A program made the position numbers and the translations under genes. A stretch of DNA of 64,000 bases, from NCBI GenBank assembly GCA_052387815.1, contig JBQTIU010000024.1, positions 3,028-67,027 on the forward strand, read 5' to 3'. Positions 45,041 through 63,338 of this stretch are shown here, in pieces. The first letter of the stretch is position 1. Each line of letters begins with the position of its first letter. The stretch comes from Pseudomonadota bacterium. Lineage in GTDB: Bacteria; Pseudomonadota; Alphaproteobacteria; CACIAM-22H2. The notes below the pieces were generated by a model that did no database searches, was not told the origin of the DNA, and worked only from the letters and a program-made list of their open reading frames with translations.

Positions 45041-45049
45041 GGGGATGCC

Positions 45050-48022: not shown

Positions 48023-48563
48023 GGGTCGCCTTGAAGGTCCTGAAATCGGGGTACGCCGCGTGCGCCGCCGAGACGAGCGGCCTGGCCTCGGGGGCGAGCG
48101 GCCAGTCGATGGCGAGGGTCGGATCGTTCCAGGCGATGCCGGCGCCCGAGGCGGCGGCATAGATGTTGTCGGCGGTGATCGCCAGGGCGGCGCCGTCGGT
48201 GAGCGACAAGGTCCCGTTGGCGAAGCCGCGCGGCACGAACAGCGCCCGCGGGCTATCGGCCGACAGCTCGAAGCCCTGCCAGGCGCCGAACCGCCCGTCG
48301 CGGCGCAGATCGACGACGACCCAGAACGTTCGCCCGCTCAAGGGCACGATCAGCTTCGCCTCGACATGGGGTGGCAACTGGACGTAGAGCCCCCTAAGCG
48401 TATTGGCCCGCGCCGTCCATTGGTAGATGCATTGCCGGACGCCCAAGTCGATGCCGGCCGGCGCCAGTTCCTCGGCATCGAAGGTGTGCACGAGCCATCC
48501 CCGCTCGTCGCGGAAGGGATCGAGCGGGACGAGCCGGGCGTGGTCGGGGCGGGTCATGCGCAT
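48009..48563 (-). CDS. RmlC-like cupin sugar-nucleotide 3,5-epimerase
   Basis: dTDP-4-dehydrorhamnose 3,5-epimerase fold pattern (FRDERGWL...RGLYVQ...FVPRGFANG). The start is ATG 48563. Confidence 0.65.
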   Translation of the reverse strand: MRMTRPDHARLVPLDPFRDERGWLVHTFDAEELAPAGIDLGVRQCIYQWTARANTLRGLYVQLPPHVEAKLIVPLSGRTFWVVVDLRRDGRFGAWQGFELSADSPRALFVPRGFANGTLSLTDGAALAITADNIYAAASGAGIAWNDPTLAIDWPLAPEARPLVSAAHAAYPDFRTFKATHGGF

Positions 48564-48630
48564 CCGGGCGCCGCAGAGCGGTCGAAGATCCGGAAACCGG
48601 GATCGGCGCACGGCATTGAGACCGCTTGCG

Positions 48631-49548
48631 TCATCGGGACGGCGCCAGCTCGAGATAATCGACGACCGTCTTGACGCCCATTCCAAGATCGATGCGCGCA
48701 CTCCAGCCGAGACGCGCGCGGGCCTTGTCGTCCGAGACCGGCCGGATGCTGGGGTTGTCGGGGTCGCGCTCGATCACGCGCGGGCGCCGGCCGAGCAGCC
48801 CAGCAGCGGTATCGATCACCTCGCCGAGCGAGACCAGTCGGGGTCCCTGGATGTTGAAGACCTCGAATCCGGGCACCCCGAGCACTGCCAGCACCGCGCC
48901 GGCGACGTCCTCGACATGGATGAACCTTCGCGCGGTGGCGCGCGATCCGATCGTCACGGCGTCCTTGGTCGCGACCTCATGGACCAGGGTGTCGACCGCC
49001 GACCAGTTGTCCCGGTGGGGTCCGTAGAGGATGCCGAAGCGCAACACGGTCGCCGGGCAGAAGCCCTGGGCGTGGCGCTGGCGCAAATTCGCTTCGCTGA
49101 CCAGCTTGGAAAGCGCGTATTCGGAGGAAAGGCGCGCCGGGTCGATGGCGTCGGTCTCCTTGCGGGGCGCGTCCATGGGGAAGGAATCGTAGACCCATTC
49201 GCTCGACGCGAAGACGAACTGGCGAGCCCCGCGCGCCGCCGCCGCGTCCATGAGGGCGAGATTGCCGATGACGTTGACCTCGAAGCAGGCCCTCGCGCGG
49301 CCGCGGCATTCCGAATCGCGCGCCAGCGCCGCAAGATTGACCACGGCATCGACGCCTTCCGGTATGAGGTCGGCGATCCGCTGGTCCCTGATGTCGGCAA
49401 CATGGCAGTCGGGGCGGCCGGTGGGCTTGAGATCGACGCCGCTCACCGCGATTCCGGCAGCATCGCACTGGGCGAGCAGGCGCCGGCCGACGAAGCTTGC
49501 GGCGCCGGCCACGAAGATGCGCTTGGGCTCGGCGGCGGTCCCGGTCAT
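48631..49548 (-). CDS. NAD-dependent epimerase/dehydratase (SDR)
   Basis: IFVAGAASFVGRRL Rossmann motif and a YALSK catalytic motif. Confidence 0.7.
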   Translation of the reverse strand: MTGTAAEPKRIFVAGAASFVGRRLLAQCDAAGIAVSGVDLKPTGRPDCHVADIRDQRIADLIPEGVDAVVNLAALARDSECRGRARACFEVNVIGNLALMDAAAARGARQFVFASSEWVYDSFPMDAPRKETDAIDPARLSSEYALSKLVSEANLRQRHAQGFCPATVLRFGILYGPHRDNWSAVDTLVHEVATKDAVTIGSRATARRFIHVEDVAGAVLAVLGVPGFEVFNIQGPRLVSLGEVIDTAAGLLGRRPRVIERDPDNPSIRPVSDDKARARLGWSARIDLGMGVKTVVDYLELAPSR

Positions 49549-50468
49549 CGTCCCACCATCGCGCCGATTTCGCGCACGATCAGCTCCATCGATCCCTTCC
49601 TTGGCGCATAGCCGATCTTCGCCGCCGCGTCATGGCGGCTGATGGTCGCCGGCTTGACGAGATCGCGATCGGCGAAATCCGCCGCGCCCTCGATCCGGAA
49701 TTCGAGCCCGTAGCGCTGGGCCAGCACTTCGATGACCTCGACCTTGGTGACCGGCGCGGCGCTGCAAATATCATAGGCGTTGTTCGGCGCTCCGGCCGCG
49801 ACCAAAAGCCGGATCAGGTGCGCGAGATCGTCGGCGCCGACAAAGTCGCGCACGAAATTGTGGGCCGAGGTCAGGAACCGTTGCCCGTTGACGAGGCAGT
49901 TGGCAAGTTCGGCGAGGAAGAACCCGCCGTCGAGATCGATCTGCCGGCTGAAATAGCCGAACACCCGGATGTCGGCAATCCTAAACTGCGACAGGGCGCG
50001 ATGCCTCGCCTCGGCCACGAGCTTGGCGAGCGCGTAGACATGCCGCGGCCCCAGCCGATTGACCGGCAGGCGGGCTTCCGAGTCGGGTCCCGCCGCCTCG
50101 CCCTCGGCGAGGGAATAGATGGCCCCGGTGCTGAGGAAGACATAGATCGTCGCCGGGCGTCGCGCCACATAGTCGAGGACCAGATCGTCGACCTTAGCGG
50201 TCCAGCCCAAGAGCTCGGCGCCGGCCCTGTCGATCGCGCGCGGGTCGCCCGGGCCGGCGGCATTGATCACGACCTCGCACTCGGCGCCCGCGAAGGCCGC
50301 GTAGGGGCCGACCTCGATCCCGCGCCGGTCGGCCAGGTTGGCGTCGAGGTAGGCCTCGATCGAGCGCGGGTTGCGGGCGAACAGGGACAGGCGCGCCTGG
50401 TCGCGGAACTCGCCGACCAGTCCCTTGGCGATGTGGCCCGAGGCGCCGAGGATGGCGATGGTTCGCAT
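49545..50468 (-). CDS. NAD(P)-dependent sugar reductase/epimerase (SDR-like)
   Basis: IAILGASGHIAKGL Rossmann motif and a YALAK motif. The start is ATG 50468. Confidence 0.6.
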   Translation of the reverse strand: MRTIAILGASGHIAKGLVGEFRDQARLSLFARNPRSIEAYLDANLADRRGIEVGPYAAFAGAECEVVINAAGPGDPRAIDRAGAELLGWTAKVDDLVLDYVARRPATIYVFLSTGAIYSLAEGEAAGPDSEARLPVNRLGPRHVYALAKLVAEARHRALSQFRIADIRVFGYFSRQIDLDGGFFLAELANCLVNGQRFLTSAHNFVRDFVGADDLAHLIRLLVAAGAPNNAYDICSAAPVTKVEVIEVLAQRYGLEFRIEGAADFADRDLVKPATISRHDAAAKIGYAPRKGSMELIVREIGAMVGR

Positions 50469-50652
50469 CGGCTCGTTCGTGGCCGAGGGAGGCCGCCCTG
50501 GGGCGCTCACCCGCACGCGGCGCTATGCCTACGCCTTCGCGGCCGGCGAAAGCCGACGCTTGATCGACTGTCCACTGCCCGGTCTTCCATCAAAAGTGGG
50601 CGGTTTCACGGGCAAAGTCGGCTGACCGCTCCTTGCACATACATCGCGTCCT

Positions 50653-51417
50653 TCAGCGAATGCGTCGCACAAAACCACCCCGCCAATAAGTCACCCACCG
50701 GTCGACCTGACCCTCGTTAAACGCAAACGGCGGCTCTACGATCGCGAAGTCAGGGTTTAGCGCCACGAATGCCTCCGCCGCCGCTTTCGGATGGTTCCAA
50801 CTCCAATCAGGTGCGGTTCGCGGGCCGCCCGCGACCAACTCTTTGATCCCGTCGGCAGCAATAATGTACGACCCAACGGAGACCAGGGAGGCATAAGCTT
50901 CGAGTTCGGCCAACACGTGATCCTTGGTGTGATTGCTGTCGAGGATGACCAGCACTTTTTCTCCGGGGGCAACCAATCGGCAGACTCGATCGACTGTGGC
51001 TGGAGCAATCGAACTACCCTCAACCAATGTGATGAACGGGAACAACTCATGCGCTTGGATCGCGACGAGATTGTGCGGCCGAATCTCGATGTCGATGCCG
51101 ATGACGCGACCACGTCCAATCAGCCGACAAAGGCTGGCATAGAACACCAGCGAGCCTCCGTGCGCGATTCCCGTCTCGACGATCACGTCGGGCTTGATCG
51201 AATAGACCACCTCCTGCATCCTGACCAGGTCCTCGGCAAGCTGAATGATCGGACGGCCGAGCCACGTGAAGCTATACACGTGCTTAACGTCCCAGCCACA
51301 ACGCAGCCACGCTTCTGACGCCAAAGCGAAGGCCTCCGGCGAGCTCATCGGATAGACGACTTCAGTACCGTCGCTTTCGACGATCACCACTGACCGCTCC
51401 GAGTCGATTTTGATCAC
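50653..51417 (-). CDS. CmcI/cephalosporin-hydroxylase-family class I methyltransferase (sugar O-methyltransferase-like)
   Basis: VIVETGIAHGGSLVFYA motif as in CmcI/rhamnosyl O-MT family. GC content is clearly lower than in neighbouring genes. Confidence 0.7.
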   Translation of the reverse strand: MIKIDSERSVVIVESDGTEVVYPMSSPEAFALASEAWLRCGWDVKHVYSFTWLGRPIIQLAEDLVRMQEVVYSIKPDVIVETGIAHGGSLVFYASLCRLIGRGRVIGIDIEIRPHNLVAIQAHELFPFITLVEGSSIAPATVDRVCRLVAPGEKVLVILDSNHTKDHVLAELEAYASLVSVGSYIIAADGIKELVAGGPRTAPDWSWNHPKAAAEAFVALNPDFAIVEPPFAFNEGQVDRWVTYWRGGFVRRIR

Positions 51418-51562
51418 GGTTCTTCAACCTCTCTCGAAATGCGGCCACCAGAGATTCAAAGTCATCCAGGCGGCGCTTCGGACGGCGCCCAAACTCATCA
51501 CGCAGCGGTCGGGCAGCGCGCTGCCCGCCAGCCAAAAATTAACCCGCTCGTGAATAATTCGG

Positions 51563-53470
51563 CTAGGCCTCGAATACCAAATCTTCGTACCGGCGCTCGT
51601 CCCGCGGCGGCTGGCCGGGCAGGAGGCGCGGGATTTCCTTGCCCTTAAAGTCGCGGGTCCGCAAGTCGTCGACCGCCAACCCGAACGCCTCGAGCCGTTC
51701 GCGCCAATAGTTCGAGCCGTCGAGCTTCGCCTGCAGCCGGTCGATGACGCCGGGCTCGATCGTGCCGTCGAGCTTGTGCTGCAGATAGCCGATGAAATAC
51801 AAGGCCAGGCCGTGCTCGGGCGAGATGACGTCGCGAAGCGTGTTCAGGTTCTTGAGCTGCTGCTCGATCTTCGCCGGCCGGTCCTCGGAGAACAGGCGGT
51901 GAAAATTGAGGTGATAATTCATGTAGAACCAGATGTCGGTGATTTGCTGCGGCGTCGGCACCGCATCCATGGGGATGGCGCAAAACGCCTCTTCGAACCC
52001 GACGGTCGCCAGGCGCAGGCCGAGGTCGATCTCGTCCTGTTTGCCGTAGCCCCCGGCCATGAATCGCACTTCCGAGCTGCCGACGTTCTGGATGAGCCCC
52101 TGCTCGACCATCGAGTCGTAGATGGGCGTGTTGGGAAGTGGCTGGAGCGGCGTGATCCCGCACCAGTCGAGGTCCATGTGGCGCGCGACGTTGATGGTGT
52201 CGTTGATCATCGCCAGGGTCTCGCCCGGGAACCCGATCATCAGGAACACGCGGGAGTGGATCTGCTCGTAGCGCCGCAGGACCTCGGCCGCGGCGAGGAA
52301 GGTGCGCACCGTGCCCGGCTTCTTGATCTGCCGCAGGACCACCGGGTTTCCGGATTCCATCCCGATGTTGAGCGCGATGCAGCCGCTTTCGGCCATGGCG
52401 TGCACGATCTCATCGGTGCACGAGGCGGCGATCAGCCCGTTGGTCGCATCCCAGGTCATGCCCAGCCGGCGTTTGACCATGCCGTTGAACAGGGCGATCG
52501 CGCGGGCGTGGTCCTTCAACAGATCGTCGTCGAGCCAGACGAAATGGCCGATGCCGTGCTCGTTTTTCAACAACTCGAGCTCGTCGAGCACCGAATCGAC
52601 CGAACGCTGCCGGACCGCCTTGCCGTTGAAATTCCGTACGCTGCAGAAAGTGCACTGGGCACGGCAGCCGCGGTTCGAGAGCACGGTGGCAAAACGCGTG
52701 CCGGGCGGCTTGAAGCCGTGGAAATTGCCGATGACGCCGACCTTAGAGAGATCGCGGACGTTGAACAGATCGTAGGCCGGGATGACGTCAATTTCCCCGG
52801 CCGTGGGCTGGCACTGGGCAAGGAACCGGAACCGTTCCCGCCCATCGTCGAGGATCACCTGCCCGAGACCGGTCGGTCCGAGTTCGCCGCCGACCGCCCG
52901 GCAGAACAGCTTGATGGCGACATCGCCCTCCCGCAGGAAGGCGATCCGTGCCGCCTTGATGTCGTCGAGCACGCGCTCGACGTCGTTGTTCACATGCACC
53001 CCGCCGATGGCCACCGGGATGCCCGAAAGCGCCGCATGTTCGCACACGCGCTTCAACGAGGCGTGCGTCATGGTGAACATGCACGTCACGCCGATCAAAT
53101 CCGGCTTGAAGCCCGCGATGGCGTCGTCCAGGGCCGCCTGCCAAGTGCGGTCGAAATCGAACTCCCGCTTCGAGGCGGCGGCGCGCGCCGCCTTCAGGAC
53201 CTCGTCGTTCAGGTTGACGATCTTGGGCTCGACGCCGATCGCGCGCAGGTGCTGCGCCAGCACGCCCAAGCCATAGGGCGGATAGTTGGGATAGCGCTTG
53301 CGCCGTGCCGTCGCAAAGCGGAACAGGCCGGACTCGCCGTCGGGCGGGTTGACCAACAGGACGCGCTCGATCTTGCCGCGCGGGAAATGGCGAGCGAAAA
53401 AGGCCTCCACCGCCGCCGCGTCGTGCGGCACCGACAAGGGATCGACGGCAACCGATGCGCACCCGCTCAT
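51563..53470 (-). CDS. B12-binding-domain radical SAM protein (class B radical SAM methyltransferase-like)
   Basis: N-terminal cobalamin-binding Rossmann region, then a CxxxCxxC cluster motif (RGCRAQCTFCSV). 635 aa from ATG 53470. Confidence 0.8.
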   Translation of the reverse strand: MSGCASVAVDPLSVPHDAAAVEAFFARHFPRGKIERVLLVNPPDGESGLFRFATARRKRYPNYPPYGLGVLAQHLRAIGVEPKIVNLNDEVLKAARAAASKREFDFDRTWQAALDDAIAGFKPDLIGVTCMFTMTHASLKRVCEHAALSGIPVAIGGVHVNNDVERVLDDIKAARIAFLREGDVAIKLFCRAVGGELGPTGLGQVILDDGRERFRFLAQCQPTAGEIDVIPAYDLFNVRDLSKVGVIGNFHGFKPPGTRFATVLSNRGCRAQCTFCSVRNFNGKAVRQRSVDSVLDELELLKNEHGIGHFVWLDDDLLKDHARAIALFNGMVKRRLGMTWDATNGLIAASCTDEIVHAMAESGCIALNIGMESGNPVVLRQIKKPGTVRTFLAAAEVLRRYEQIHSRVFLMIGFPGETLAMINDTINVARHMDLDWCGITPLQPLPNTPIYDSMVEQGLIQNVGSSEVRFMAGGYGKQDEIDLGLRLATVGFEEAFCAIPMDAVPTPQQITDIWFYMNYHLNFHRLFSEDRPAKIEQQLKNLNTLRDVISPEHGLALYFIGYLQHKLDGTIEPGVIDRLQAKLDGSNYWRERLEAFGLAVDDLRTRDFKGKEIPRLLPGQPPRDERRYEDLVFEA

Positions 53471-53706
53471 GATCCGGAACCCCGAGTCATTCGCTGTTGT
53501 CGTCCTTGGGCCGACCCGCCCGTTTGCCGCGCCTTCGGCCGTCACCCCGATCTCTTGGGAATAGTACGGCGAACCGCCCGGCGGAACAAGCGATTACCCG
53601 AATGGAGCGTCCACATATCCAAGAACATACCTAGAAATGGCTATATTCGAACACCGACTTGCCCGCTGTTGCCAATACCTTTCCGGGCCACCCGGCGAGG
53701 GCCCGC

Positions 53707-54930
53707 TCAAATCTCCCGCACGTCGGGGACCGGCACCAGGAAGCGCCCGCCTCGGCGCCGGTACTCCGCCTGCTGGGCGACGATCTCCTCGGCGAAGTTC
53801 CAGGCCAGGATCAAGAGGTAATCCGGCCGGTCGGCGAGCAATCGATCGGGCGCCACGACCTCGATATGGGTGCCGGGGGTCAACCGGCCCTGCTTCAACG
53901 GGTTGCGGTCGGCGATATAGTCGATGTCCGCCGGCCCCAGCTCGAGAAAGCTTAGCAGGGTGTTGCCCTTGGCCGGCGCCCCGTAGCCCGCGACCCGGCC
54001 GCCGGCCCGGCGGATGCGTTCGAGCCGCGCCCTCAGGTTCGATTTGTTGGCAAGGATGCGCTGGGCGAAGCCCCGGTAGGTCCCGATGTCGCGCAGGCCG
54101 CGGCGCTCTTCCATGGCGAGCAGCGCGGCCACCCCCGGATCAGGCCTCGCCCGTCCCTGGCGCCGTATCCATGCCCTGAGCTGGCCGTGATGGATCGCCA
54201 AGCGCTCGACGGCGACGATCTCGAAGCCGTGGAGCTGGAACAAACGCTGCATGGGCCCGAGCGACCAATACGACACGTGCTCGTGGTAAATGGTGTCGAA
54301 CGCCAACATGTCGAGGAGGTCCGTGAGGTAATGCGCCTCGAGCACCACCACGCCGTCGGGAGCGAGCGCGAGATCGATGCCGTCGAGGAACCCGTGCAGG
54401 TCGGGGATGTGGGGAAAGGTGTTGGTGAACGCGAACACCCGGACCGGGCCGTGGTCGTCGCGGATGCGGCGCGCCGTCTCGGGGTTGAAGAACGCGGTCA
54501 TGACCTCGATGCCGTTCAAGCGGGCGAACGGCGCGAGATTGGCGGCCGGATCCACCCCCAGCGTGCGCGCCGGGCACGCCCGGCGAAAGCCGTCGAGCAG
54601 CGTGCCGTCGTTGCAGCCGATATCGACGACCAAATCGCCGGGCCCAAGCGGGATTCGCTCGGCGGCCGCGCCGGCGAGAGAGCGCAGATGCTGGGTGAGC
54701 GTGTCGGATGCCGACGACACGTAGAGGTAGTCCTCGAACATGGCCGCGGGCGGGACACGCTCGGTCAACTGGACGTGGCCGCAATCATGGCAGTACCCGA
54801 TCCTGAGCGGGAATTTCGGCTCCGCGGCGGCGGCCAGCTCGGCGGCGGTCACGAACTTGTTCGCCAACGCCATCGGCCCCAAGTCGAGGAACGTCTCGAC
54901 GGTGGCGGAACGGCATACGATGCAGCTCAT
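53707..54930 (-). CDS. NDP-hexose C-methyltransferase (TylC3/EvaC-like, zinc-ribbon N-terminus)
   Basis: CxxC...CxxC N-terminus (MSCIVCRS...CHDCGH), SAM motif VVDIGCNDGTLL, and a C-terminal C-methyltransferase domain. Confidence 0.75.
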   Translation of the reverse strand: MSCIVCRSATVETFLDLGPMALANKFVTAAELAAAAEPKFPLRIGYCHDCGHVQLTERVPPAAMFEDYLYVSSASDTLTQHLRSLAGAAAERIPLGPGDLVVDIGCNDGTLLDGFRRACPARTLGVDPAANLAPFARLNGIEVMTAFFNPETARRIRDDHGPVRVFAFTNTFPHIPDLHGFLDGIDLALAPDGVVVLEAHYLTDLLDMLAFDTIYHEHVSYWSLGPMQRLFQLHGFEIVAVERLAIHHGQLRAWIRRQGRARPDPGVAALLAMEERRGLRDIGTYRGFAQRILANKSNLRARLERIRRAGGRVAGYGAPAKGNTLLSFLELGPADIDYIADRNPLKQGRLTPGTHIEVVAPDRLLADRPDYLLILAWNFAEEIVAQQAEYRRRGGRFLVPVPDVREI

Positions 54931-54947
54931 CGCCGGTGCTCGCCCCC

Positions 54948-55949
54948 CTACTCGACGACCGCGTTGATCACCCGCACGCCTTGCGGCTCATAGCCGACCG
55001 CGAGCTCGAGGAGCTCGCCGAGCGAGCGCCGGATCGGGGCGTGGCGCTCCGGGGCCGCGATGAACATCAGGAAGCCGCCCCCGCCCGCCCCGCAAATCTT
55101 GCCGCCATAGGCCCCGGCCGCCATCGCGCGGGCGTACCAGTCGTCGATGCGGTCGTTGGTGATGGTCGAGGCGAGGCCGCGCTTGATCTCCCAGCCCCGG
55201 CCGAGCGCGGCGCCGAAGGCGGCCGGATCGAAGTCGCCGTTCAAGAGGTTGCGCAGCTCGTGCGCCTGGTCGCGCAGGCTCGCCAGGCGGTCGAAGTTGC
55301 GAGGCACGCCCTGCTTCTGCTCGTCGAGAATCTCGCCGGCATCGCGCTCGATCCCGGTCCAGAATACCAGCACGTAGTCGAACAGGCGCTCCATCTGGGA
55401 GGCGGGCAGCGGCAGCGGCTCGATCGCCACCTGGTCGTTCGGGTAGAACAAGATCAGGTTGAGGCCGCCGAAGGCGGCGGCGAAATGGTCCTGCTTGCCG
55501 ATCGGGCGGCCGAGCAGGGTCATCTCGACGTGGGCGGCCTCCTTGGCGATCTCGGCGCTCGAGACGCGCTCGTTGCGCATGACGTGCAGCGCCTGCAAGA
55601 GGCCGACGGCGAAGCTGCTCGACGAGCCGAGGCCGGAGCTCGCCGGCACGTCGCCGATCGTCGCGATATAGAGCGGCGGGTCGACCGACACCAGCCGCAG
55701 GCATTCGCGCGCGATGCTGTTCTTGATGTCGTCGAGCCGGTCGACGTTCTCGGACTCCGAATAGTTGAGCCGGTAGCGGCGATTGAACAGCTCGCTCACC
55801 CGCTTCACGGTTACGAACACGCGCTTGTCGATCGCCGTGCTCAACACGGCGCCGGTCTCGCGGCGATAGAAGTCGGGCAGGTCGGTGCCGCCGCCGGCGA
55901 AGCTCAAGCGCAACGGGGCGCAGGTGGTGACGTAGTTGACGACCGGCAT
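54948..55949 (-). CDS. hddA: GHMP kinase, D-glycero-alpha-D-manno-heptose 7-phosphate kinase-like
   Basis: PLRLSFAGGGTD and GLGSSSSFAV GHMP motifs. It sits in the heptose gene block. Confidence 0.75.
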   Translation of the reverse strand: MPVVNYVTTCAPLRLSFAGGGTDLPDFYRRETGAVLSTAIDKRVFVTVKRVSELFNRRYRLNYSESENVDRLDDIKNSIARECLRLVSVDPPLYIATIGDVPASSGLGSSSSFAVGLLQALHVMRNERVSSAEIAKEAAHVEMTLLGRPIGKQDHFAAAFGGLNLILFYPNDQVAIEPLPLPASQMERLFDYVLVFWTGIERDAGEILDEQKQGVPRNFDRLASLRDQAHELRNLLNGDFDPAAFGAALGRGWEIKRGLASTITNDRIDDWYARAMAAGAYGGKICGAGGGGFLMFIAAPERHAPIRRSLGELLELAVGYEPQGVRVINAVVE

Positions 55950-55951
55950 GC

Positions 55952-56401
55952 TCAGCCGTGCCTTACCGACCAGTCATAGGGGATGTCGTTCTTGAACGGG
56001 TCGATATAGATGAGCTCCTCGCGATCGTAGGGCAGGGTCGCGCAGTTGGCGAGGATCGCCATCTTGTCGCCGTACGCCTTGTAACCGTTGGTGATGCCGG
56101 GCGGGATCTGGACCAGGCAGTAATTGTGCTCGCCGATGAACAGCTCGACGAGCGCGTTGCGGGTGGGCGAAGCCTCGCGTCCGTCGAACAGCACCAGCTT
56201 GATCATGCCGGCGATGCAGCAGTTGTTGAGCGTCATCCGCTTGTGGATGTGCCAGGCCTTCACCACCCCGGGATAGCCGCACGAGAAATAGATCTCCCCG
56301 AACTCGAGGAAGTGCGGGTCGGTGCGCTTGAGCATGTGCATGACCATGCCCCGCTCGTCGGGGATCCTGGGCAAGGGAATGACCTTCACGCCGTCGATCA
56401 T
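55952..56401 (-). CDS. RmlC-like cupin epimerase (GDP-4-keto-6-deoxyheptose 3,5-epimerase-like)
   Basis: 149-aa cupin (DERGMV...GEHNYCLVQIPPGITNGY). ATGA overlap with the dehydratase gene. Confidence 0.65.
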   Translation of the reverse strand: MIDGVKVIPLPRIPDERGMVMHMLKRTDPHFLEFGEIYFSCGYPGVVKAWHIHKRMTLNNCCIAGMIKLVLFDGREASPTRNALVELFIGEHNYCLVQIPPGITNGYKAYGDKMAILANCATLPYDREELIYIDPFKNDIPYDWSVRHG

Positions 56402-57411
56402 GCTTGCTCTCGTTGGCGGGGAATGGCGCCGGCGCGCATTTGCTGGCGCCAGTAGTCGAGCGTGTCGGAGAGAATCTGCTCGAACGGGATGTTCGGCACC
56501 CAGCCGGTCGCCTGCCGGAACTTGGCGGTGTCGGCGATCAGCCGCGGCACGTTGGTCGGCCGTACGTAGCGCGGGTCGGTCTCGTAGGCGATGCCCTTGA
56601 CGCTCGACATGGCGATCAGCCGCTCGAGGGCCTGGCGAAAGGTATGGATGCTGGCCTCGTCCTCCGAGCCGATCAGATAGAGCTCGCCCGGCGCGCATTT
56701 CTCGACCGCCAGCCAATAGGCTTCGACGATGTCGCGGACGTGCGTGAAATTGCGCCGGTCGTCGAGATGGCCGACCTTGAGCATCTTGTCCTGCCGGCCG
56801 GCCTCGACGCGGGCGATCTGGTAGGCGTACCAGGGAATGCCGAACGCCTTGTCGCGGCGCGGCCCCTCGTGGTTGAAGGCGCGCGTGCGGATGACGTTGA
56901 GGCCGTAGGAGCGGAAGTAGACGTAGCCGATCAGGTCCTGCGCGATCTTGGTCACGGCGTAGGGGTTGACGGGGCGCAGCACGGTGGACTCGAGGATCGG
57001 GATCTCGTGCTCCAGGATGTCGCCGTATTCCTCGCCCGAGCCGGGGATCAGCAGGCGCGCCTTCGAGCCCGCCTGGCGCAACGCCTCGAGGAGGTTGACC
57101 GTGCCGTTGTAGTTGACCGCCATGTAGCGGTGCGGGTTGTTCCACGACGGGCTGACGAAGCTCTCGGCGGCGAAATGCAGCACCATTTCGGGTGCCGCCT
57201 CGTCGAGCGCGGCGCGGGTGGCCACCGGGTCGGTCAAGTCGCAATCGACCCAGCGGATCCGATCCTCGATGTGGCGCACGTTGTCCAGGCGCGACAGATG
57301 CCAGCGCTTGGTGCCCCAAAGTTCCGCCGCGCCGCCGGCGGACAACAGATAGTCGGCGGCGTGCGAGCCGACGAAGCCGGTGATGCCGGTGATCAGGACG
57401 CGTCGAGCCAC
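56398..57411 (-). CDS. GDP-mannose / GDP-heptose 4,6-dehydratase family
   Basis: RVLITGITGFVGSHAADYLL and YAVTK motifs, resembling GMD/DmhA. No in-frame ATG; the predicted GTG start at 57411 has GGAG 7 nt upstream. Confidence 0.75.
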   Translation of the reverse strand: MARRVLITGITGFVGSHAADYLLSAGGAAELWGTKRWHLSRLDNVRHIEDRIRWVDCDLTDPVATRAALDEAAPEMVLHFAAESFVSPSWNNPHRYMAVNYNGTVNLLEALRQAGSKARLLIPGSGEEYGDILEHEIPILESTVLRPVNPYAVTKIAQDLIGYVYFRSYGLNVIRTRAFNHEGPRRDKAFGIPWYAYQIARVEAGRQDKMLKVGHLDDRRNFTHVRDIVEAYWLAVEKCAPGELYLIGSEDEASIHTFRQALERLIAMSSVKGIAYETDPRYVRPTNVPRLIADTAKFRQATGWVPNIPFEQILSDTLDYWRQQMRAGAIPRQREQA

Positions 57412-58646
57412 GGGCGCTCCTGCGGGTGCGCGGGGTCGGCGATCAGGCGAGCGACGATGTCGAGGAGACCCGTTCCCTCCTCGACCATGGCGAAGGGAGC
57501 GCCGGCGCGCCGGGCGGCCTCGCCGTCGCGTGGGTCGTCGCCCACGAACAGGGTGCGCGAGAGGTCGAGCGCGAAGTCGCGTTGCGCCTGGAACAGCATG
57601 CCGGGCGCGGGCTTGCGGCACCAGCAGCCCTCGTCCCAGTCGTGCGGGCAGTGGTAGACGGCATCGATGCGGCCGCCGGCCGCCGCGGCTTCCCTTAGCA
57701 TCCGCTCGTGGATCGCCTCGAGGTCGGCAAGGGTCATGAAAGAGCGCGCGATCCCGGACTGGTTGGTCACCACGATCACGCGATAACCGGACTCGGCGAG
57801 CAGCCGCAGCGCGTCGAGCGCGCCGGGCAGCCAGCGCCAATCCCGCCACGAGGTCACGTACCGGCCGCCGCGCGCCTTGCGATTGAGGACACCGTCGCGA
57901 TCGACCAGGATCGTCTTGGGGCGAGCGAGGAAGCGCCCGGTCTCGTCCAGCCGTTCGATCGTCCCGACGCTGTAATAGCGATGGTCGGTCTCGAAGGCGC
58001 GGAGCTGCCGGGCCGCGACCAGCCGCGGATAGACCGCTGCCTCGAAGGAGGGATTGAGATCCTCGGGCAGGAGATCGAGCACCGCGCGCTCGGCGATCAG
58101 GAAGCCGATATCGACTCCCGCGAGCCCGGTCGCGGCCCGCTGTTTGTCGTAGAGGTCGACGAACCCGTCGGCGCCGACGCTGAGGTTGCCGCGGGTGTAG
58201 CCGTCGCGGTTGCGGTAGACCGCGACCTGCGCCATCGCGCCGCCGGCGCGATAGGCGTCCCACATGTCGGCGAACGGCATCGGCCAGTAATTATCGCAAT
58301 ACGCCAGGAGGAACCGCGGCTCGATCATCGGGGCCGCGAGCTTGAGGCGCCGGCCGGTGTCGTCCTCGACGCCGCTGAGCGCGTACTCGATCTCGACCCC
58401 GAGGGGTCGTCCGTCCCCGAAATAGCCGCTGATCGCCTCGGGCAGATAGCCGAGGAGCAAGAGGAAGCGCTCGAAACCCTGGTCGCGCAGCATTTCGATC
58501 AGGTACTCGAGGAAGGGCCGGCCGTGGAATTCGATCATCGGCTTGGGGCGCGTCTCGGTGAGCGGGCGCAGGCGCATCCCCCGCCCGCCGGCGAGGATGA
58601 CCGCCTGGCGCGGCCGTTCGAACGCGACGCCGGTGCTGTTGCTCAC
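57393..58646 (-). CDS. bifunctional D-glycero-alpha-D-manno-heptose-1-phosphate guanylyltransferase (HddC-like) and D,D-heptose 1,7-bisphosphate phosphatase (GmhB-like)
   Basis: N-terminal AVILAGGRGMRLRPLTETRPKPM nucleotidyltransferase domain. C-terminal HAD domain (ILVDRDGVLN...CWCRKP..GDDPRD). Confidence 0.8.
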   Translation of the reverse strand: MSNSTGVAFERPRQAVILAGGRGMRLRPLTETRPKPMIEFHGRPFLEYLIEMLRDQGFERFLLLLGYLPEAISGYFGDGRPLGVEIEYALSGVEDDTGRRLKLAAPMIEPRFLLAYCDNYWPMPFADMWDAYRAGGAMAQVAVYRNRDGYTRGNLSVGADGFVDLYDKQRAATGLAGVDIGFLIAERAVLDLLPEDLNPSFEAAVYPRLVAARQLRAFETDHRYYSVGTIERLDETGRFLARPKTILVDRDGVLNRKARGGRYVTSWRDWRWLPGALDALRLLAESGYRVIVVTNQSGIARSFMTLADLEAIHERMLREAAAAGGRIDAVYHCPHDWDEGCWCRKPAPGMLFQAQRDFALDLSRTLFVGDDPRDGEAARRAGAPFAMVEEGTGLLDIVARLIADPAHPQERPWLDAS

Positions 58647-59242
58647 CGACCGTCAACGCCCTTGGTTCGTCGCTGGCCAAGGTCGAGCACCGCATGGCAG
58701 AGGGCAAGGTGGGACACTTCGACGAAGCCGTATTCCGCCGCGCCGACATGGAAGTTGAGGTCGCCCATGCGGCGCAACGGATTGTCCGCCGAAAAACCGC
58801 TGAGCGTGGCGACGAAGCAGTCCTTGGCCCGCGCCGCCTCGACCGCGCGCAGGATATTGGCCGAGCGCCCCGAGCTCGAAATGGCGATCAGCATGTCGCC
58901 CGGGCGGGCATGAAATTCGATCTGCTTGGCGAACACGCTCTCGTAGCCGAGATCGTTGCCAAGACAGGTCAGCGCCGCGCCGTCGTTGAAGGCAAGCGCG
59001 CGCAGGCCGCCGTTCTTCGAGTAGTCGATGGCGAGATGGCTGGCGATGCCGGCGCTGCCGCCGTTGCCTACGAACATCAGCTTGTTGCCCCGGCCATGCG
59101 CCGTCCGCGCCGCGCCGGCGAAATGGGAAAAAGCCACCTCGATGCCGATCGGCCGGCCCGCGCCGTCGCTCGCCGCGGTCTCCTCGAGGCAGCGATGCAG
59201 GGTCGCGAAATAGTCGGTGATGCGATCGAGCGGGATATCCAT
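58643..59242 (-). CDS. gmhA: SIS-domain phosphoheptose isomerase
   Basis: FVGNGGSAGIASH and SSSGRS motifs. The start is ATG 59242; an upstream in-frame TTG at 59281 is the alternative. Confidence 0.8.
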   Translation of the reverse strand: MDIPLDRITDYFATLHRCLEETAASDGAGRPIGIEVAFSHFAGAARTAHGRGNKLMFVGNGGSAGIASHLAIDYSKNGGLRALAFNDGAALTCLGNDLGYESVFAKQIEFHARPGDMLIAISSSGRSANILRAVEAARAKDCFVATLSGFSADNPLRRMGDLNFHVGAAEYGFVEVSHLALCHAVLDLGQRRTKGVDGR

Positions 59243-59506: not shown

Positions 59507-60277
59507 TCAGGCGGCCGGGTCGTCCTCGATATAGGCGATGAAGGACTGGCCCCACCACCCCACCGACAGGTGGGGCGCGAAGCGAAAGCGGCTGCGGCGG
59601 CAAAATTCGCGGAAGGCCCGCGCGACGCCCTTGGCCGGCGAGCCCTTGTAGCCGGCGAACAGGTCGTCCATGTAAAGCACCGAGCCCTCCTGCAAGAGCG
59701 GCTCGATGAACTTGAACACCGGCACGGCCGACTCGTAGAGATCGCAATCGATAGTTGCGAGCGCGACCTTGTTCCCCTGGTCCAGGAAGCGGCGCTGCAA
59801 TTCGGGGGTCAGGCTATCGGCATAGAAGCCCGCGATCGGGTGGACGCGTTCCGACCAGATGCCGTGCGCCTGCACCATCCTCATGAAGTCCTCGACCGAG
59901 GTGGCCAGCGCGCCGCGTCGCCAAATTTCGTTGACCGGATTCGAGGTCGGCTGCGGCAGCCCTTCGAAGCTGTCGAAGGCGAAGAACTTCATCTCGGAAA
60001 AGTTGTAGCGGCGCGCCTCGGTCAAGGCCATGCGGAATGTCCGGCAGCGGTGGCAGCCATATTCGTGATAATCGCCAGTGATCCGATTCTCGCGGAGGAA
60101 GTCGAAGACTCGGCGGAAGAACAGGTACTTCTCGGTTTGCCGACTCATATGGGTATCAGCGATCTCCTGCTCGCGCCCCCAGTCCCGGAGCTCCGGCCCC
60201 GTCGCGAGCCGCACCCAGGGCTCGCCGTCCTGGGCCTCGATCCGCACCGGGGGCAAGTCGCGCCTCGGCTCGTTCAT
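59507..60277 (-). CDS. TylF/MycF-family (macrocin O-methyltransferase-like) sugar O-methyltransferase
   Basis: TylF-family pattern (YHEYGCHRCRTF...ATIDCDLYES...LYMDD) and 256 aa. Confidence 0.8.
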   Translation of the reverse strand: MNEPRRDLPPVRIEAQDGEPWVRLATGPELRDWGREQEIADTHMSRQTEKYLFFRRVFDFLRENRITGDYHEYGCHRCRTFRMALTEARRYNFSEMKFFAFDSFEGLPQPTSNPVNEIWRRGALATSVEDFMRMVQAHGIWSERVHPIAGFYADSLTPELQRRFLDQGNKVALATIDCDLYESAVPVFKFIEPLLQEGSVLYMDDLFAGYKGSPAKGVARAFREFCRRSRFRFAPHLSVGWWGQSFIAYIEDDPAA

Positions 60278-60471: not shown

Positions 60472-60556
60472 GTCGCGGTCCAAGGGTTCGAGGGGGGTCC
60501 TGTCAGGCAAAGCGCTGCGTGACCCGGCCGAGATATTGCGCGCAGTCGAAGATGTC
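60341..60556. repeat. direct repeat copy 2 (216 bp)
   Basis: See copy 1 at 59112..59327. Confidence 0.7.
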
Positions 60557-61717
60557 CTGCAAACCCAGCTTTTGGGCCTCCACCCACAGCCTGTCGGACG
60601 GACGCCGAAAGCGAAAGTGCAGCGCGTCGACGAGGCGCCGCGGCGCCCCGTCAAGCGCCCGGTTGATCGCCCGCGCCGCCGATCGCAGGGCCCCACGCGC
60701 CGGCGTCCCGGCCGCGACCCCCGCCGCCACCGCAGCCTGGATTTCGGCCGGCGCCTCGCCGAGCGCCGCGTGCCAGGCCGCCATTTCGGCGGCAACGTCG
60801 CGGCCCATCCCCTGCATCTCGCGGATGCCGCGCCAGCACGCGAGGAAATAATTGGCAAGGTCGAGGCGGTACGACCCCAGCCGTTCCGGCATGGCCGCCT
60901 GCAGGCGCAGAATCGTGTCCGCGCCGTCGGAGGGGAAAACGCTCATCAGCTTGATCGGCGCGCGCTCGATCCGCATGCCCGCCGTCATGCGAGTAAAGGT
61001 CCGGGGATCGGCGACATGGCCGCCCGAGGAATCGGGCGGGGCGCCGAGGACGGTGAGCGGCAAGTCGAGGCGCAGATGCTTGTGGCTGAAGGCGAGCGCG
61101 GCGGCGGCGGCCGAGGTCATGGGATCGATCGGCAGGAACAGCGCGCCGTCCAGGCGCTCGCGGATGCGCGCGATGAGCTCTCGCCGGTAGACGGCAAAGG
61201 GAAACAACGGCAGCTTGCGTTTCACGGCACCGGCCTTGCCGGTCCCCGAGGCGAACATCTCGGCCAGGAGCTCGGAAGCCTCGTAGACGAAACGCTGGCC
61301 GGAAAACGCGTTGTAACCGAAACGGATCGCGCCGCCGTTCCGCTGGCCGGGGCCTTCCATGTACCCCGCATGCGTCCACGAGACCGTGTCGATGTCGGCA
61401 TGGTCGCTAAGCTCGCGGTCGAGGATGGACAGCAGGTTCGGCGCGATCGCGTCATCTTCGCACAACAACACGTGGGCCTCGCCCCCGGCATGGGCGAACG
61501 CGAAGTTCCAGTGGTCGATGAGCGTCAGGTATTCGGACGGTCGCACGTAGCGGACCCGCGGGTCGGCGAAGCCGCGCACGAGGGCCTCGCAGCCCTCGTC
61601 GCTGTTGTCGGAGACCACCACCTCGAAGTCCTGGAAGCTCTGGGCGAGCGCGGAGCGAATCGCGCACGGCAACAGGCGCGGTCGCGTGGTCGTGATGACG
61701 ATCGAGAACTTAGCCAT
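60503..61717 (-). CDS. GT2-family glycosyltransferase
   Basis: MAKFSIVITTTRPRLLPCAIRSALAQSFQDFEVVVSDNSDEGC N-terminus with a DxD region, as in GT-A/GT2. Confidence 0.8.
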   Translation of the reverse strand: MAKFSIVITTTRPRLLPCAIRSALAQSFQDFEVVVSDNSDEGCEALVRGFADPRVRYVRPSEYLTLIDHWNFAFAHAGGEAHVLLCEDDAIAPNLLSILDRELSDHADIDTVSWTHAGYMEGPGQRNGGAIRFGYNAFSGQRFVYEASELLAEMFASGTGKAGAVKRKLPLFPFAVYRRELIARIRERLDGALFLPIDPMTSAAAAALAFSHKHLRLDLPLTVLGAPPDSSGGHVADPRTFTRMTAGMRIERAPIKLMSVFPSDGADTILRLQAAMPERLGSYRLDLANYFLACWRGIREMQGMGRDVAAEMAAWHAALGEAPAEIQAAVAAGVAAGTPARGALRSAARAINRALDGAPRRLVDALHFRFRRPSDRLWVEAQKLGLQDIFDCAQYLGRVTQRFA

Positions 61718-61753: not shown

Positions 61754-63097
61754 TCATCGGATGACAGGCTCGCCGGTCGTCGCGACCGCGCGGGCCTCGG
61801 CCCTGGCGGGGTCTGCGAGCCGCAGCCAGGCTGGCGAGATGCGCGATTCGGCGAGGGCGTACCAGAGGTGGTCGTGCGGCCTGACAATCTGCTCGATGGG
61901 CACGCCGTAGGGAATATCGGTCGCGATGCCGTCGAGGAAATCGCGGACCGCCGCCTCGATCTCGGCAGCGGCGTTCGACCGTACCGCGTATCCGTCGTGG
62001 CGGTACGACTGCGAGAGGTGCCTGAACGCGCGACGCGGGTCCACGGCCTGGCCCGCGGGGTCCTCCCAAAACTTGAAGAAGACGGTCGCGCGATAGCGCG
62101 TCTGGAAATAGGGGAAATTGTTGACGATCAGGGTCGGGATGCCGTTCACCCCGGGAAGCCAGGAGCCGCCGCCCGACTCGCCGACGAACAGATCCGCCTC
62201 CGTAGCAGCGAACAGCGAGAACAGAAATGGATCCTGTCCGAGGATGCGCGCATCGGCGAGCCAGCCCTCCGTCTCGCGCGCAAACTCGTCGGGAAGGTAT
62301 CGGTCCCCGATCATCAGGCATTGGTAGCCCGCATGAATGAGCGAACGGATCGCCGGCATCCACTCGATCACCACGGAACCCGACCGGCTGCCGGACTCCA
62401 ATTCCTGCTCCGATCCCTTCCATCGCAGATAAAGGCAGCAGAGCTTTCGCGCCTTGCGCTCCGACCGCGCGACCAGCCGGTCGAGCGCCACGCGGATCGG
62501 CTCGACGAGCGGCGCGGGGAGCCGTACCGGCGGGGCGGCCCGAGTACTGAGGAGGCGGAAATAGGCATGGACCGTATGCACCGAACGCGACTCCCGGGTC
62601 GGGTCGGCCTCGCCGTCGCCGCCGAAGCCGACGGACCGCAGCATCGCGAAGTGCAAATCCATCGCCGAGGCAAGGACGATCTTGTTCGGCCACAGCTTTC
62701 GTATCGCCGGAGCCAACAAGCCGCACAGCCATTCCTGAACGCGATATGGCACGCTCAGCGGCGGCCACCGGCCGCTGCGCCCAAGCTTGAAGCCGAAGGG
62801 CAGGAGATGGAGGCGCGGCACGGTCCACAACCTTGGCAGATACCAGTTCTGCACCTCCGGACTCGCGGCGAACAGGAGCGTGACCCGACGCCCCGGGTAC
62901 AGCCGCCGCAAGGCGTCAGGAAACACTATGAGATGCCCGAACCCGCCGCCTTCATTGATGACCACCACTTCCGCGCTCCGTATGTCGCGCCAGGCCCGGC
63001 ATACGCCGTACGCGACCCGCAGCAGGCTCACGGGAAGGACCAGCCACCGCGCCACCCCGTTCAGGCGCCAGCCGACAGCATGCAGAATCCGTCTCAT
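61754..63097 (-). CDS. hypothetical protein, possibly a GT-B (GT9 heptosyltransferase-like) glycosyltransferase
   Basis: 447 aa from ATG 63097. It has a weak GT9-like pattern (VVVINEGGGFGHLIVFPDALRRL ... FVGESGGGSWLPGVNGIPTLIV). The overlapping ORF 61710..62828 was rejected. Confidence 0.35.
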   Translation of the reverse strand: MRRILHAVGWRLNGVARWLVLPVSLLRVAYGVCRAWRDIRSAEVVVINEGGGFGHLIVFPDALRRLYPGRRVTLLFAASPEVQNWYLPRLWTVPRLHLLPFGFKLGRSGRWPPLSVPYRVQEWLCGLLAPAIRKLWPNKIVLASAMDLHFAMLRSVGFGGDGEADPTRESRSVHTVHAYFRLLSTRAAPPVRLPAPLVEPIRVALDRLVARSERKARKLCCLYLRWKGSEQELESGSRSGSVVIEWMPAIRSLIHAGYQCLMIGDRYLPDEFARETEGWLADARILGQDPFLFSLFAATEADLFVGESGGGSWLPGVNGIPTLIVNNFPYFQTRYRATVFFKFWEDPAGQAVDPRRAFRHLSQSYRHDGYAVRSNAAAEIEAAVRDFLDGIATDIPYGVPIEQIVRPHDHLWYALAESRISPAWLRLADPARAEARAVATTGEPVIR

Positions 63098-63099
63098 TG

Positions 63100-63249
63100 C
63101 TAGGTCGCGAACGGCCGGTAAATCGGGCCCCGCCGTCCTTCCTTCAGCAGCAGCATGGCGCCGTAGGCGAGCGGCAGCGCCAGGCGCCGGTAGCCGACAA
63201 GCCCCGCCATGCGGTCGAGGAAGCGCAGGAGCACGGGGTTCGACGCCAT
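63100..63249 (-). CDS. small ORF (49 aa) between the radical SAM gene and the GT9-like gene
   Basis: MASNPVLLRFLDRMAGLVGYRRLALPLAYGAMLLLKEGRRGPIYRPFAT. It has GAGGTG immediately upstream and its TAG stop is 2 nt before the next ATG. Whether it is really coding is uncertain. Confidence 0.2.
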   Translation of the reverse strand: MASNPVLLRFLDRMAGLVGYRRLALPLAYGAMLLLKEGRRGPIYRPFAT

Positions 63250-63338
63250 CACCTCGACCGAACCCTGGAACCGGTCGCGATGGAGCGGCTGGTCCGACAA
63301 ATACTTGTCGCAGAACCGGACGGTCTTGTCGGCTAAGG

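Follow-up and report, generated by a model that had tools for sequence, protein, structure and literature searches.

A predicted heptose-linked gene cassette for a carbon-branched sugar in the polysaccharide locus of a Pseudomonadota bacterium

The stretch of DNA analysed here, called the window throughout, comprises 64 000 nucleotides of contig JBQTIU010000024.1 from a Pseudomonadota bacterium, and carries a large Wzy-type polysaccharide locus. Third-position G+C shows that the minus-strand genes form a single unbroken array from approximately 13.5 kb to the window end; at a window G+C of about 69%, unfiltered lists of open reading frames (ORFs) are crowded with spurious frames. The subject of this report is a cassette of 13 genes within that array (46122–59242), in which homologues of heptose-activating enzymes stand beside a nucleotide-sugar C-methyltransferase (C-MT), a split thiamine diphosphate (ThDP)-dependent enzyme and a radical S-adenosylmethionine (SAM) enzyme with a B12-binding domain (rSAM). 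The original prediction had treated a shorter interval, 51563–59242, as the functional unit. This interval holds exactly seven co-directional minus-strand genes, with a third-codon-position G+C (GC3) of 0.82–0.95, and has the gmhA ATG (59242) and the stop codon of rSAM (51563) at its two ends. All seven genes are real, and profile searches recovered every domain named for them. The unit itself is larger, six downstream partners having been missed. Followed in the direction of transcription, moreover, the heptose genes come first and C-MT and rSAM after them, the reverse of the order first described.

Domain identities were assigned with Pfam and NCBIfam profiles, applying the NCBIfam equivalog cut-offs. 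Related loci compared with the window number 132, of which 52 are genome loci seeded with rSAM and 80 are metagenome loci seeded with the dehydratase described below. Counts out of 20 refer to dehydratase-seeded metagenome loci with at least 5 kb on each side, a sample that is independent of rSAM seeding.

Genes of the cassette and their conservation

The cassette begins with a gmhA-like gene for a sedoheptulose-7-phosphate isomerase of 199 amino acids (aa) (58643–59242; this and all other cassette genes lie on the minus strand). Its SIS domain matches Pfam SIS_2 at 9e-13, the top NCBIfam model is gmhA (2e-25; 90 bits against a cut-off of 209), and orthologues 53–58% identical occur in cassettes L002, L028, L053 and L063. 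The adjoining gene encodes a 417-aa fusion (hddC-gmhB; 57393–58646) of an HddC-like sugar-1-phosphate nucleotidyltransferase (NTP_transferase, 6e-16, residues 15–147; HddC model, 60 bits against 300) with a GmhB-like heptose-1,7-bisphosphate phosphatase of the HAD-IIIA type (residues 244–393, 5e-48; NF006506, 163 bits against 178). This fusion is kept at full length in 16 of the 20 seeded loci. Further downstream, hddA (54948–55949) encodes a 333-aa HddA-like D-glycero-D-manno-heptose-7-phosphate kinase with GHMP_kinases_N and GHMP_kinases_C domains, for which HddA is the top NCBIfam model (2e-46; 159 bits against 600). By Pfam and NCBIfam, all four activation activities are encoded: SIS isomerase, GHMP anomeric kinase, HAD-IIIA 7-phosphatase and nucleotidyltransferase. 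The GHMP-kinase route and the GDP-type SDR downstream suggest GTP as the donor and specificity for the alpha-anomer.

Between the fusion and hddA lie two further heptose-associated genes. The first (56398–57411) encodes a GDP-sugar 4,6-dehydratase-like extended short-chain dehydrogenase/reductase (SDR) of 337 aa (GDP_Man_Dehyd, 1.5e-73), the GTG start of which at 57411 is preceded by an AGGAG ribosome-binding site. The alignment places GSGEEYG, YAVTK and NHEGPRR at the expected motifs, so that Ser/Thr-x-Glu, YxxxK and NHE-x-P-x-R are all present. The last segment reads NHESPxRG in GMDs, THSGPRR in the Campylobacter jejuni GDP-heptose 4,6-dehydratase (PDB 7us5) and NHIGPGQ in RMDs; in the GMD/RMD literature its arginine discriminates dehydratases from RMDs. 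The window protein aligns end to end with 7us5, C-terminal tail included, and the two have in common an R-x-G-x-IP tail and an RW...DN..H..DRI segment. These motifs favour a dehydratase, despite a higher score to an RMD. The second gene (55952–56401) encodes a small RmlC-superfamily cupin of 149 aa, a candidate epimerase or keto-isomerase (dTDP_sugar_isom, 6e-11; a weak FdtA match), whose nearest structure is an uncharacterized 'dTDP sugar isomerase' (PDB 3ejk, 4e-29). No protein of the cassette is better conserved: identity is 70–81% in most related cassettes and approximately 46–49% in divergent ones, and the DERG, WH.H and KLV motifs are invariant. The WHxH motif is similar to the HxH motif of FdtA.

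The C-MT gene (53707–54930) starts 17 bp from the hddA stop codon. Its 407-aa product is an NDP-4-keto-sugar C-methyltransferase of the TcaB9/KijD1/TylC3 type, in which Methyltransf_13 (PF08421, 72 bits), Methyltransf_23 (PF13489) and Methyltransf_14 (PF08484, 181 bits) all exceed their cut-offs (Methyltransf_13 and Methyltransf_14, 1.6e-53). Over its full length the protein matches three sugar 3-C-methyltransferases of solved structure, KijD1, MycC and TcaB9, at 300–317 bits. The zinc-ribbon cysteines C3, C6, C47 and C50 coincide with those of TcaB9, FDTIYHEH aligns with the FDQIYDEH of TcaB9 (Y-x-E-H), and the tyrosine of MFEDYLY and the histidine of NTFPHIP are aligned as well. In TcaB9, Y222, E224 and H225, together with Y76 and H181, form the catalytic cluster. 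An exact-sequence look-up with C-MT returned no match.

The six downstream partners occupy 46122–51417. (i) A 254-aa methyltransferase of the CmcI/rhamnosyl-O-methyltransferase family (50653–51417; RMNT_CmcI, 1.6e-66) matches the NCBIfam rhamnosyl O-methyltransferase model at 90 bits, below the cut-off. (ii) SDR_49545 (49545–50468) is a divergent extended SDR discussed with rSAM below. (iii) SDR_48631 (48631–49548), an extended SDR of 305 aa (Epimerase, 4.5e-36; RmlD_sub_bind, 3e-15; YxxxK), is a likely ketoreductase. (iv) An RmlC-like cupin of 182 aa (48009–48557) matches dTDP_sugar_isom at 1e-37 and rmlC at 104 bits, below the cut-off. (v) The alpha subunit of a ThDP-dependent, pyruvate-dehydrogenase-like E1 component (47096–48022; 308 aa; E1_dh, 1.7e-29) matches PDB pyruvate dehydrogenase E1 alpha at 2e-20 and retains an intact GDG-X26-NN ThDP motif. 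(vi) A divergent E1 beta subunit of 325 aa (46122–47099), without a Pfam match, is recognized through the beta subunit of a 2-oxo acid dehydrogenase in the PDB (1um9_B, 6e-12) and the NCBIfam pyruvate dehydrogenase E1 beta model (1.6e-5); the TP-x-x-E activating glutamate is present. No E2 or E3 domain of a 2-oxoacid dehydrogenase was found among the window proteins scanned.

Gene spacing is tight over much of the cassette. Overlaps of 4, 19 and 4 bp join the genes from gmhA to the small cupin, the two SDR genes overlap by 4 bp, the RmlC-like cupin and E1 alpha genes by 14 bp, and the E1 alpha and E1 beta genes by 4 bp. A promoter and terminator scan found no coding-strand terminator in the module. 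The overlaps of 4–19 bp and the lack of such a terminator fit co-transcription. The same scan yielded fewer matches than shuffled controls and thus no useful boundary.

Homologues of these genes recur together elsewhere. In nine rSAM-seeded loci (L001–L006, L010, L028, L040) rSAM stands among homologues of the same 12–13 genes, namely hddC-gmhB, the dehydratase, the small cupin, hddA, C-MT, the CmcI-type gene, both SDRs, the RmlC-like cupin, E1 alpha and E1 beta, in an order that differs per locus. The sources are Rhodospirillaceae, Jiella (Jiella sp. LLJ827 carries L002, a complete cassette), Stellaceae, Opitutaceae and Verrucomicrobiia, and hence include both Alphaproteobacteria and Verrucomicrobiota. 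Among the 20 seeded loci, C-MT is found in 18, the RmlC-like cupin in 17, SDR_48631 in 16, as for the fusion, E1 alpha, E1 beta and the CmcI-type gene in 15 each, hddA in 14 and the small cupin in 13. The downstream partners other than SDR_49545 are therefore conserved about as well as C-MT (15–17 of 20). Heptose genes, C-MT and the E1 pair co-occur across phyla with shuffled gene order. Because the same set recurs in dozens of unrelated contigs, its association is far beyond chance. Beyond these, related cassettes vary in what else they contain: PhyH dioxygenases, a classical SDR, radical SAM enzymes of the SPASM type or a second B12-binding radical SAM enzyme. Such variation points to a shared core equipped with a changing set of tailoring genes. 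E1-bearing cassettes come from marine, groundwater and soil metagenomes. Genes for PhyH-family Fe/2-oxoglutarate dioxygenases are present in many related cassettes (L002, 11900–12745 and 17960–18712; equivalents in L028, L010 and L062), one of them between rSAM and its SDR partner, and there is none in the window. These genes imply hydroxylated variants of the sugar.

Proposed route to a branched heptose

The cassette appears to work like a combination of three known themes: GDP-6-deoxyheptose synthesis, C-methylation of the TylC3/TcaB9 kind and two-carbon branching of the AviB1/AviB2 kind. The first is represented by the GDP-6-deoxy-heptose pathways of C. jejuni, Yersinia pseudotuberculosis and Burkholderia pseudomallei, which achieve activation through the same four activities, a GHMP kinase and a nucleotidyltransferase taking the place of HldE; RmlC-type cupins are present in the C. 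jejuni heptose pathways as they are here. Those pathways (DmhA/WcbK, DmhB/WcbJ) lack a C-MT, an E1 pair, a CmcI-type enzyme and any counterpart of rSAM. A further difference is the fusion of HddC with GmhB in the present cassette. The second theme rests on full-length homology of C-MT to TcaB9, KijD1, TylC3 and MycC, with zinc ribbon, SAM domain, C-terminal domain and Y-x-E-H motif in common. Known substrates of TcaB9-type enzymes are TDP-hexose derivatives, whereas the partner genes here indicate a heptose-derived substrate. For the third, the E1 alpha/beta pairs AviB1/AviB2 (avilamycin) and Pau11/Pau12 (paulomycin) attach a pyruvate-derived acetyl unit to a C-4 carbonyl, after which a ketoreductase yields the hydroxyethyl branch (PMC4753412). 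As in the window, these are split E1 pairs without E2 or E3, set among sugar-tailoring genes with a ketoreductase adjoining. They belong to actinomycete antibiotic clusters and act on deoxyhexoses or pentoses, whereas the present pair accompanies heptose genes in polysaccharide loci of Gram-negative type; the likeness is one of architecture.

On balance we consider it probable, by a modest degree, that the cassette makes a multiply C-branched, O-methylated, 6-deoxyheptose-derived sugar for a surface polysaccharide. What the analysis shows is domain identities, cofactor motifs and conserved gene linkage. From these the following route is proposed, with predicted substrates and nucleotide carrier; the sequence of reactions, the sites of modification, the part played by each cupin and the reaction of rSAM are speculative. 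(i) GmhA, the GHMP kinase and the GmhB-HddC fusion would convert sedoheptulose-7-phosphate to a nucleotide-activated, probably GDP-linked, D-glycero-alpha-D-manno-heptose, as family-level homology suggests. (ii) The GMD/DmhA-like SDR would, from its motifs, form the 6-deoxy-4-keto-heptose. This keto sugar would not simply be reduced and may instead serve as a platform for carbon branching. (iii) The TcaB9/TylC3-type enzyme would place a SAM-derived C-methyl group on the carbon next to the keto group. (iv) The stand-alone ThDP E1 alpha/beta pair would transfer a two-carbon acetyl group derived from pyruvate onto the carbonyl carbon, in the manner of AviB1/AviB2 and Pau11/Pau12. (v) An SDR would then reduce the branched sugar, the two cupins would set its stereochemistry and the CmcI-type enzyme would methylate it. 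(vi) A minority of cassettes, that of the window among them, would use rSAM and its SDR partner to introduce an additional radical change, most likely methylation of an unactivated carbon; this is the least certain step. (vii) Finally, a neighbouring glycosyltransferase probably transfers the modified sugar into the surface polysaccharide. The idea that the interval holds a complete route to 6-deoxyheptose in DmhA/DmhB style is thus not borne out: no dedicated C4 reductase lies in it, and the 4-keto intermediate is more likely to be consumed by the branching enzymes.

Several observations weigh against this proposal. No heptose enzyme reaches its NCBIfam equivalog cut-off, so that the assignments hold at the family level and both substrate and GDP carrier are deduced. 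The best PDB match of the dehydratase-like SDR is the RMD reductase 2pk3 (211 bits), with 7us5 second at 155 bits. In 4–6 of the 20 seeded loci the heptose activation genes fall outside the flanks, and in some lineages the dehydratase could therefore use GDP-mannose. The RmlC-like cupin has a tyrosine (RGLYVQ) in place of the canonical catalytic-base histidine (RGLH.Q); an alignment of 51 orthologues from L001–L132 shows tyrosine or phenylalanine at this position in a minority and histidine in most, and the window protein may be a non-epimerase or a cupin of altered mechanism. Known E1 alpha/beta branching systems act on TDP-sugars in actinomycetes, and the Gram-negative ones described use YerE-type enzymes (PMC4753412, PMC9306805). 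For the optional rSAM step, a fold search with rSAM could not separate methylase, dehydratase and ring-contraction chemistry, AprD4 and OxsB being as close as the methylases.

The YerE-type systems make the split E1 an unexpected choice of enzyme in this setting. Gram-negative polysaccharide pathways use single-chain YerE (PMC4753412), and the same logic extends to erwiniose and caryophyllose, made from a CDP-dideoxyhexose (PMC9306805). YerE/YerF and ErwE/ErwF, which serve branched sugars of Gram-negative and mycobacterial glycans (yersiniose, erwiniose, caryophyllose), share with the proposed route the ThDP-dependent acylation of a 4-keto sugar nucleotide, reduction with NAD(P)H and a surface polysaccharide as destination (PMC9306805). 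They differ in being single-chain, acetolactate-synthase-like enzymes acting on CDP-4-keto-3,6-dideoxyglucose, as against a split E1 and a heptose-derived sugar here. Erwiniose and caryophyllose were considered as 6-deoxy, 4-C-hydroxyethyl products of such a cassette and ruled out, as they derive from CDP-4-keto-3,6-dideoxyglucose by YerE-type enzymes. Bradyrhizose was likewise set aside: its candidate cluster is built on a dTDP-glucose dehydratase, with genes otherwise uncharacterized, and no link was found.

The substrate of C-MT is the point at which a different account could enter. C-MT, and possibly rSAM, might act on CDP-4-keto-6-deoxyglucose or on a keto sugar derived from GDP-mannose, with the heptose genes supplying an unrelated, unbranched heptose. 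The window does carry a genuine CDP-glucose pair, a glucose-1-phosphate cytidylyltransferase (365 bits against a cut-off of 300) and a CDP-glucose 4,6-dehydratase (424 against 278), both above equivalog cut-offs. TcaB9-family enzymes are known on hexose-derived substrates only, and the dehydratase-like SDR resembles GMD and RMD enzymes. A GDP-hexose 3-C-methylation route has also been proposed for virenose in the lipopolysaccharide (LPS) pathway of Coxiella burnetii, with a GDP-4-keto-6-deoxy sugar and a TylC3-like enzyme (PMC3539893, PMC3204966); it is the nearest LPS analogue, with a GDP-hexose there and a heptose-derived sugar here. Gene linkage, however, makes this account improbable. The CDP-glucose genes are 15 kb distant and are missing from the related heptose cassettes, whereas a C-MT homologue is found within 4.6 kb of the dehydratase orthologue (median 2.2 kb), and near heptose kinase and transferase genes, in the 18 seeded loci that carry it. 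The C-terminal tail of the dehydratase is the one it has in common with the heptose-specific 7us5, and neither manB nor manC turned up in the cassette of the window or in the annotated part of related cassettes, where some flanking ORFs were left unchecked. Since the CDP-glucose branch is not co-conserved, the refutation named in the original prediction, that C-MT acts on that branch, is answered in favour of the heptose link, and the preferred reading remains a heptose-derived substrate for C-MT.

Full-text literature searches found no report of C-methylated heptoses, in keeping with the earlier remark that they are not commonly reported, and none uniting heptose with C-methyltransferase, ThDP/E1 or B12-radical SAM chemistry; as most subscription journals lay outside the searches, this is weak evidence. 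The cassette is conserved, widespread and apparently undescribed. More tentatively, and with rather less confidence than an even chance, GDP-heptose-derived sugars with a C-methyl group and an E1-installed two-carbon branch may constitute a widespread undescribed class, a subset of which involves a new B12-radical SAM family acting on the nucleotide sugar or its ThDP-derived branch. If this were true, carbon–carbon branching on heptoses would be a new branch of nucleotide-sugar biochemistry, and an E1 alpha/beta sugar carboligase of the antibiotic type would be common in environmental Gram-negative polysaccharide loci.

The radical SAM enzyme and its partner

The rSAM gene (51563–53470) encodes a 635-aa protein of an uncharacterized family, in which the Pfam B12-binding (43 bits) and Radical_SAM (74 bits) domains both exceed their cut-offs. 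An alternative start at GTG 53545 was rejected for the ATG at 53470; a metagenome-assembled genome labelled Pseudomonadota bacterium has a recorded protein identical to this 635-aa product, and the gene calls of the matching public contig agree. There is one CX3CX2C motif, at residue 269, and a GG motif (G156-G157) that is invariant among 40 homologues. The GG motif is listed among the cobalamin-contacting elements in a review of cobalamin-dependent radical SAM enzymes (PMC9204698); its invariance is only suggestive as a sign of cobalamin binding by rSAM. All 27 NCBIfam matches, including PhpK, Sden_1168, HpnJ, BchE, Mmp10, TsrM, KedN5 and AprD4, lie far below the subfamily cut-offs, the highest being the Sden_1168 P-methyltransferase (98 bits against 575), HpnJ (93), PhpK (89) and, lower, rSAM_AprD4 (44). 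Homologues number more than 1200, all with generic names only.

An AlphaFold (AF2) model built with 40 homologues reached a pLDDT of 85 and a pTM of 0.85. Foldseek placed the methylases TsrM, MgmA, CysS and TokK, the ring-contracting OxsB and the diol dehydratase AprD4 about equally near to this model (E-values of 1e-18 to 1e-13, TM-scores of about 0.5, identities of 15–19%). With GenK, Fom3, TokK, CysS, TsrM, OxsB, HpnJ and AprD4, rSAM has in common an N-terminal B12-type Rossmann domain, a barrel with CX3CX2C and a helical C-terminal domain; it differs from them in its context, a nucleotide-sugar and polysaccharide cassette, and in reaching no curated family cut-off. Sequence and model are thus consistent with an enzyme of class B architecture, as originally proposed, whose chemistry is a prediction in which methylation is favoured; the methylase role assigned at the outset is unproven, since methylases, OxsB and AprD4 are about equally close by sequence and fold. 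Most cobalamin-dependent radical SAM enzymes are methylases, with OxsB, HpnJ and BchE as exceptions (PMC9204698).

In contrast to C-MT, rSAM is an optional add-on and not part of the core of the heptose set: it is present in three of the 20 seeded loci, in two of them above 40% identity, and L062, L065 and L071 are compact cassettes without it. Composition agrees with this. The rSAM-CmcI segment (50000–54000) has a G+C of 0.63–0.65 compared with about 0.69 elsewhere, the CmcI-type gene has a GC3 of approximately 0.7 as against about 0.9 in its neighbours, and the rSAM and CmcI-type genes are bordered by the three widest intergenic gaps in the module (236, 145 and 184 bp). Lower G+C, low GC3 and large gaps together suggest a mosaic or more recently inserted segment, consistent with rSAM as an add-on.

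The physical partner of rSAM is SDR_49545, a 307-aa extended SDR (Pfam Epimerase, 3e-12) with its start as in the source gene call. The Rossmann GxSGxIxxG and YxxxK motifs are present; PDB and NCBIfam searches were uninformative. It lies beside or near rSAM in L001, L002, L003, L004, L006, L010, L028, L040, L053, L059, L063, L079 and L132, and was never found without rSAM, whereas rSAM does occur without it in non-cassette loci. This pairing recalls the AprD4/AprD3 dehydration–reduction pair and leads to a serious, if unlikely, alternative to methylation. rSAM and SDR_49545 might carry out a radical 1,2-diol dehydration followed by reduction with NAD(P)H, with the loss of one more hydroxyl, for example at C7, C3 or C2. 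A methylase needs no reductase partner, and adjacency of the two genes in about 13 loci is what such a pair would predict. AprD4 is also among the nearest matches of rSAM in sequence (PDB 6fd2, 4e-9) and in fold (Foldseek, 2e-16), with the highest target-normalized TM-score, 0.68. AprD4 is not known to use cobalamin. The B12-binding match above cut-off and the invariant GG motif of rSAM speak against a close equivalence, as do methyltransferase families that score roughly twice as high as AprD4 in NCBIfam, and the non-cassette loci in which rSAM lacks the SDR.

A clue that pulls the other way from the AprD4/AprD3 likeness comes from outside the cassettes. In 12 loci without heptose genes, rSAM homologues stand beside split ThDP enzymes of the E1 or transketolase type, which ties rSAM to the ThDP-installed branch and not to heptose as such. 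Methyl extension of the two-carbon branch by rSAM would fit this association, by analogy with TokK and CysS on other substrates. These 12 loci, with the ThDP genes at most 6 kb from rSAM (L008, L009, L011, L017, L018, L021, L026, L035, L038, L044, L045, L051), include Pelagibacter and other marine lineages and often lie near genes for a 220-aa methyltransferase, a GHMP kinase, a DegT aminotransferase and further B12-binding radical SAM enzymes. This looks like a broader, undescribed association of rSAM and ThDP enzymes in sugar tailoring.

Linkage to ThDP carboligases, which would make a suitable keto-branched substrate, can also be set in favour of a third kind of chemistry, a skeletal rearrangement, carbocycle formation or ring contraction on the branched sugar in the manner of HpnJ, OxsB or BchE, giving a carbocyclic or ring-contracted product. 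HpnJ is the second-best NCBIfam match, OxsB is among the top fold matches (Foldseek, 7e-18), and cobalamin-dependent radical SAM enzymes that act on sugar rings without methylating them are documented (PMC9204698). All scores, however, are far below the family cut-offs, no diagnostic motif was identified in rSAM, and methylases dominate the characterized members of the class (PMC9204698); we regard this rearrangement as very improbable. Methylation of an unactivated carbon is retained as the favoured reaction of rSAM.

We know of no characterized enzyme of the cobalamin-dependent radical SAM type whose substrate is an NDP-sugar of a polysaccharide pathway. Should the proposal hold, rSAM would be the first B12-radical SAM enzyme in polysaccharide precursor biosynthesis. 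The cassette offers a tractable context, and a candidate substrate, for more than 1000 generically annotated B12-radical SAM proteins, and natural cassettes with and without the rSAM/SDR pair are a ready-made comparison for assigning its reaction.

The surrounding polysaccharide locus

Upstream of gmhA, two genes on the minus strand are loosely associated with the cassette. A TylF-family O-methyltransferase (59507–60277; TylF, 3.7e-11) has homologues of 37–41% identity inside cassettes L003, L079 and L093. The GT2 glycosyltransferase GT2_60503 (60503–61717; Glycos_transf_2, 6e-12) is a candidate transferase for the modified sugar; cassette L059 contains a homologue 45% identical to it, and L079 and L100 contain more weakly matching ones. 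At the window end, 63339–64000 (minus strand) encodes the C-terminal part of a radical SAM protein with a SPASM/twitch domain. Homologues of 45–49% identity adjoin rSAM homologues in L008, L020 and L022, and SPASM-type radical SAM genes lie inside cassettes L059 and L062; this recurrence points to a second radical enzyme associated with such loci.

Directly downstream of the cassette lies a nonulosonic-acid gene set (41080–46087, minus strand), with a NeuB-like synthase (44048–45040), a NeuC-like Epimerase_2 protein (42900–44051), a CMP-sugar synthetase-like CTP_transf_3 protein (41080–41796), an Acyl_transf_3 acyltransferase and an FkbM methyltransferase. An ORF at 43051–44040 without a Pfam match was rejected as a wrong frame, the true gene being that of the NeuC-like protein. 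Homologues of NeuB and CTP_transf_3 flank cassettes L059 and L097.

The CDP-glucose pair forms, with an SDR, a separate branch at 35672–38603 (minus strand), which implies that the polysaccharide contains a second deoxyhexose of an unusual kind. The remainder of the array (13503–34738, minus strand) makes the locus unusually rich in methylation genes, with three more SAM methyltransferases and a methyltransferase joined to one of several GT4 glycosyltransferases. It also encodes a WbpM/PglF-like Polysacc_synt_2 protein, a Wzy_C protein, a DegT aminotransferase, a protein resembling heparinase II/III, a homologue of asparagine synthase and a 905-aa ADH-GFO/IDH/MocA fusion. Two large, conserved-looking ORFs on the minus strand have no Pfam family: 39393–41087 (564 aa) and 61754–63370 (538 aa). 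The 538-aa product matches the TIGR04372 glycosyltransferase domain below threshold, and homologues 27–31% identical lie by gmhA-like genes in L012, L013 and L034.

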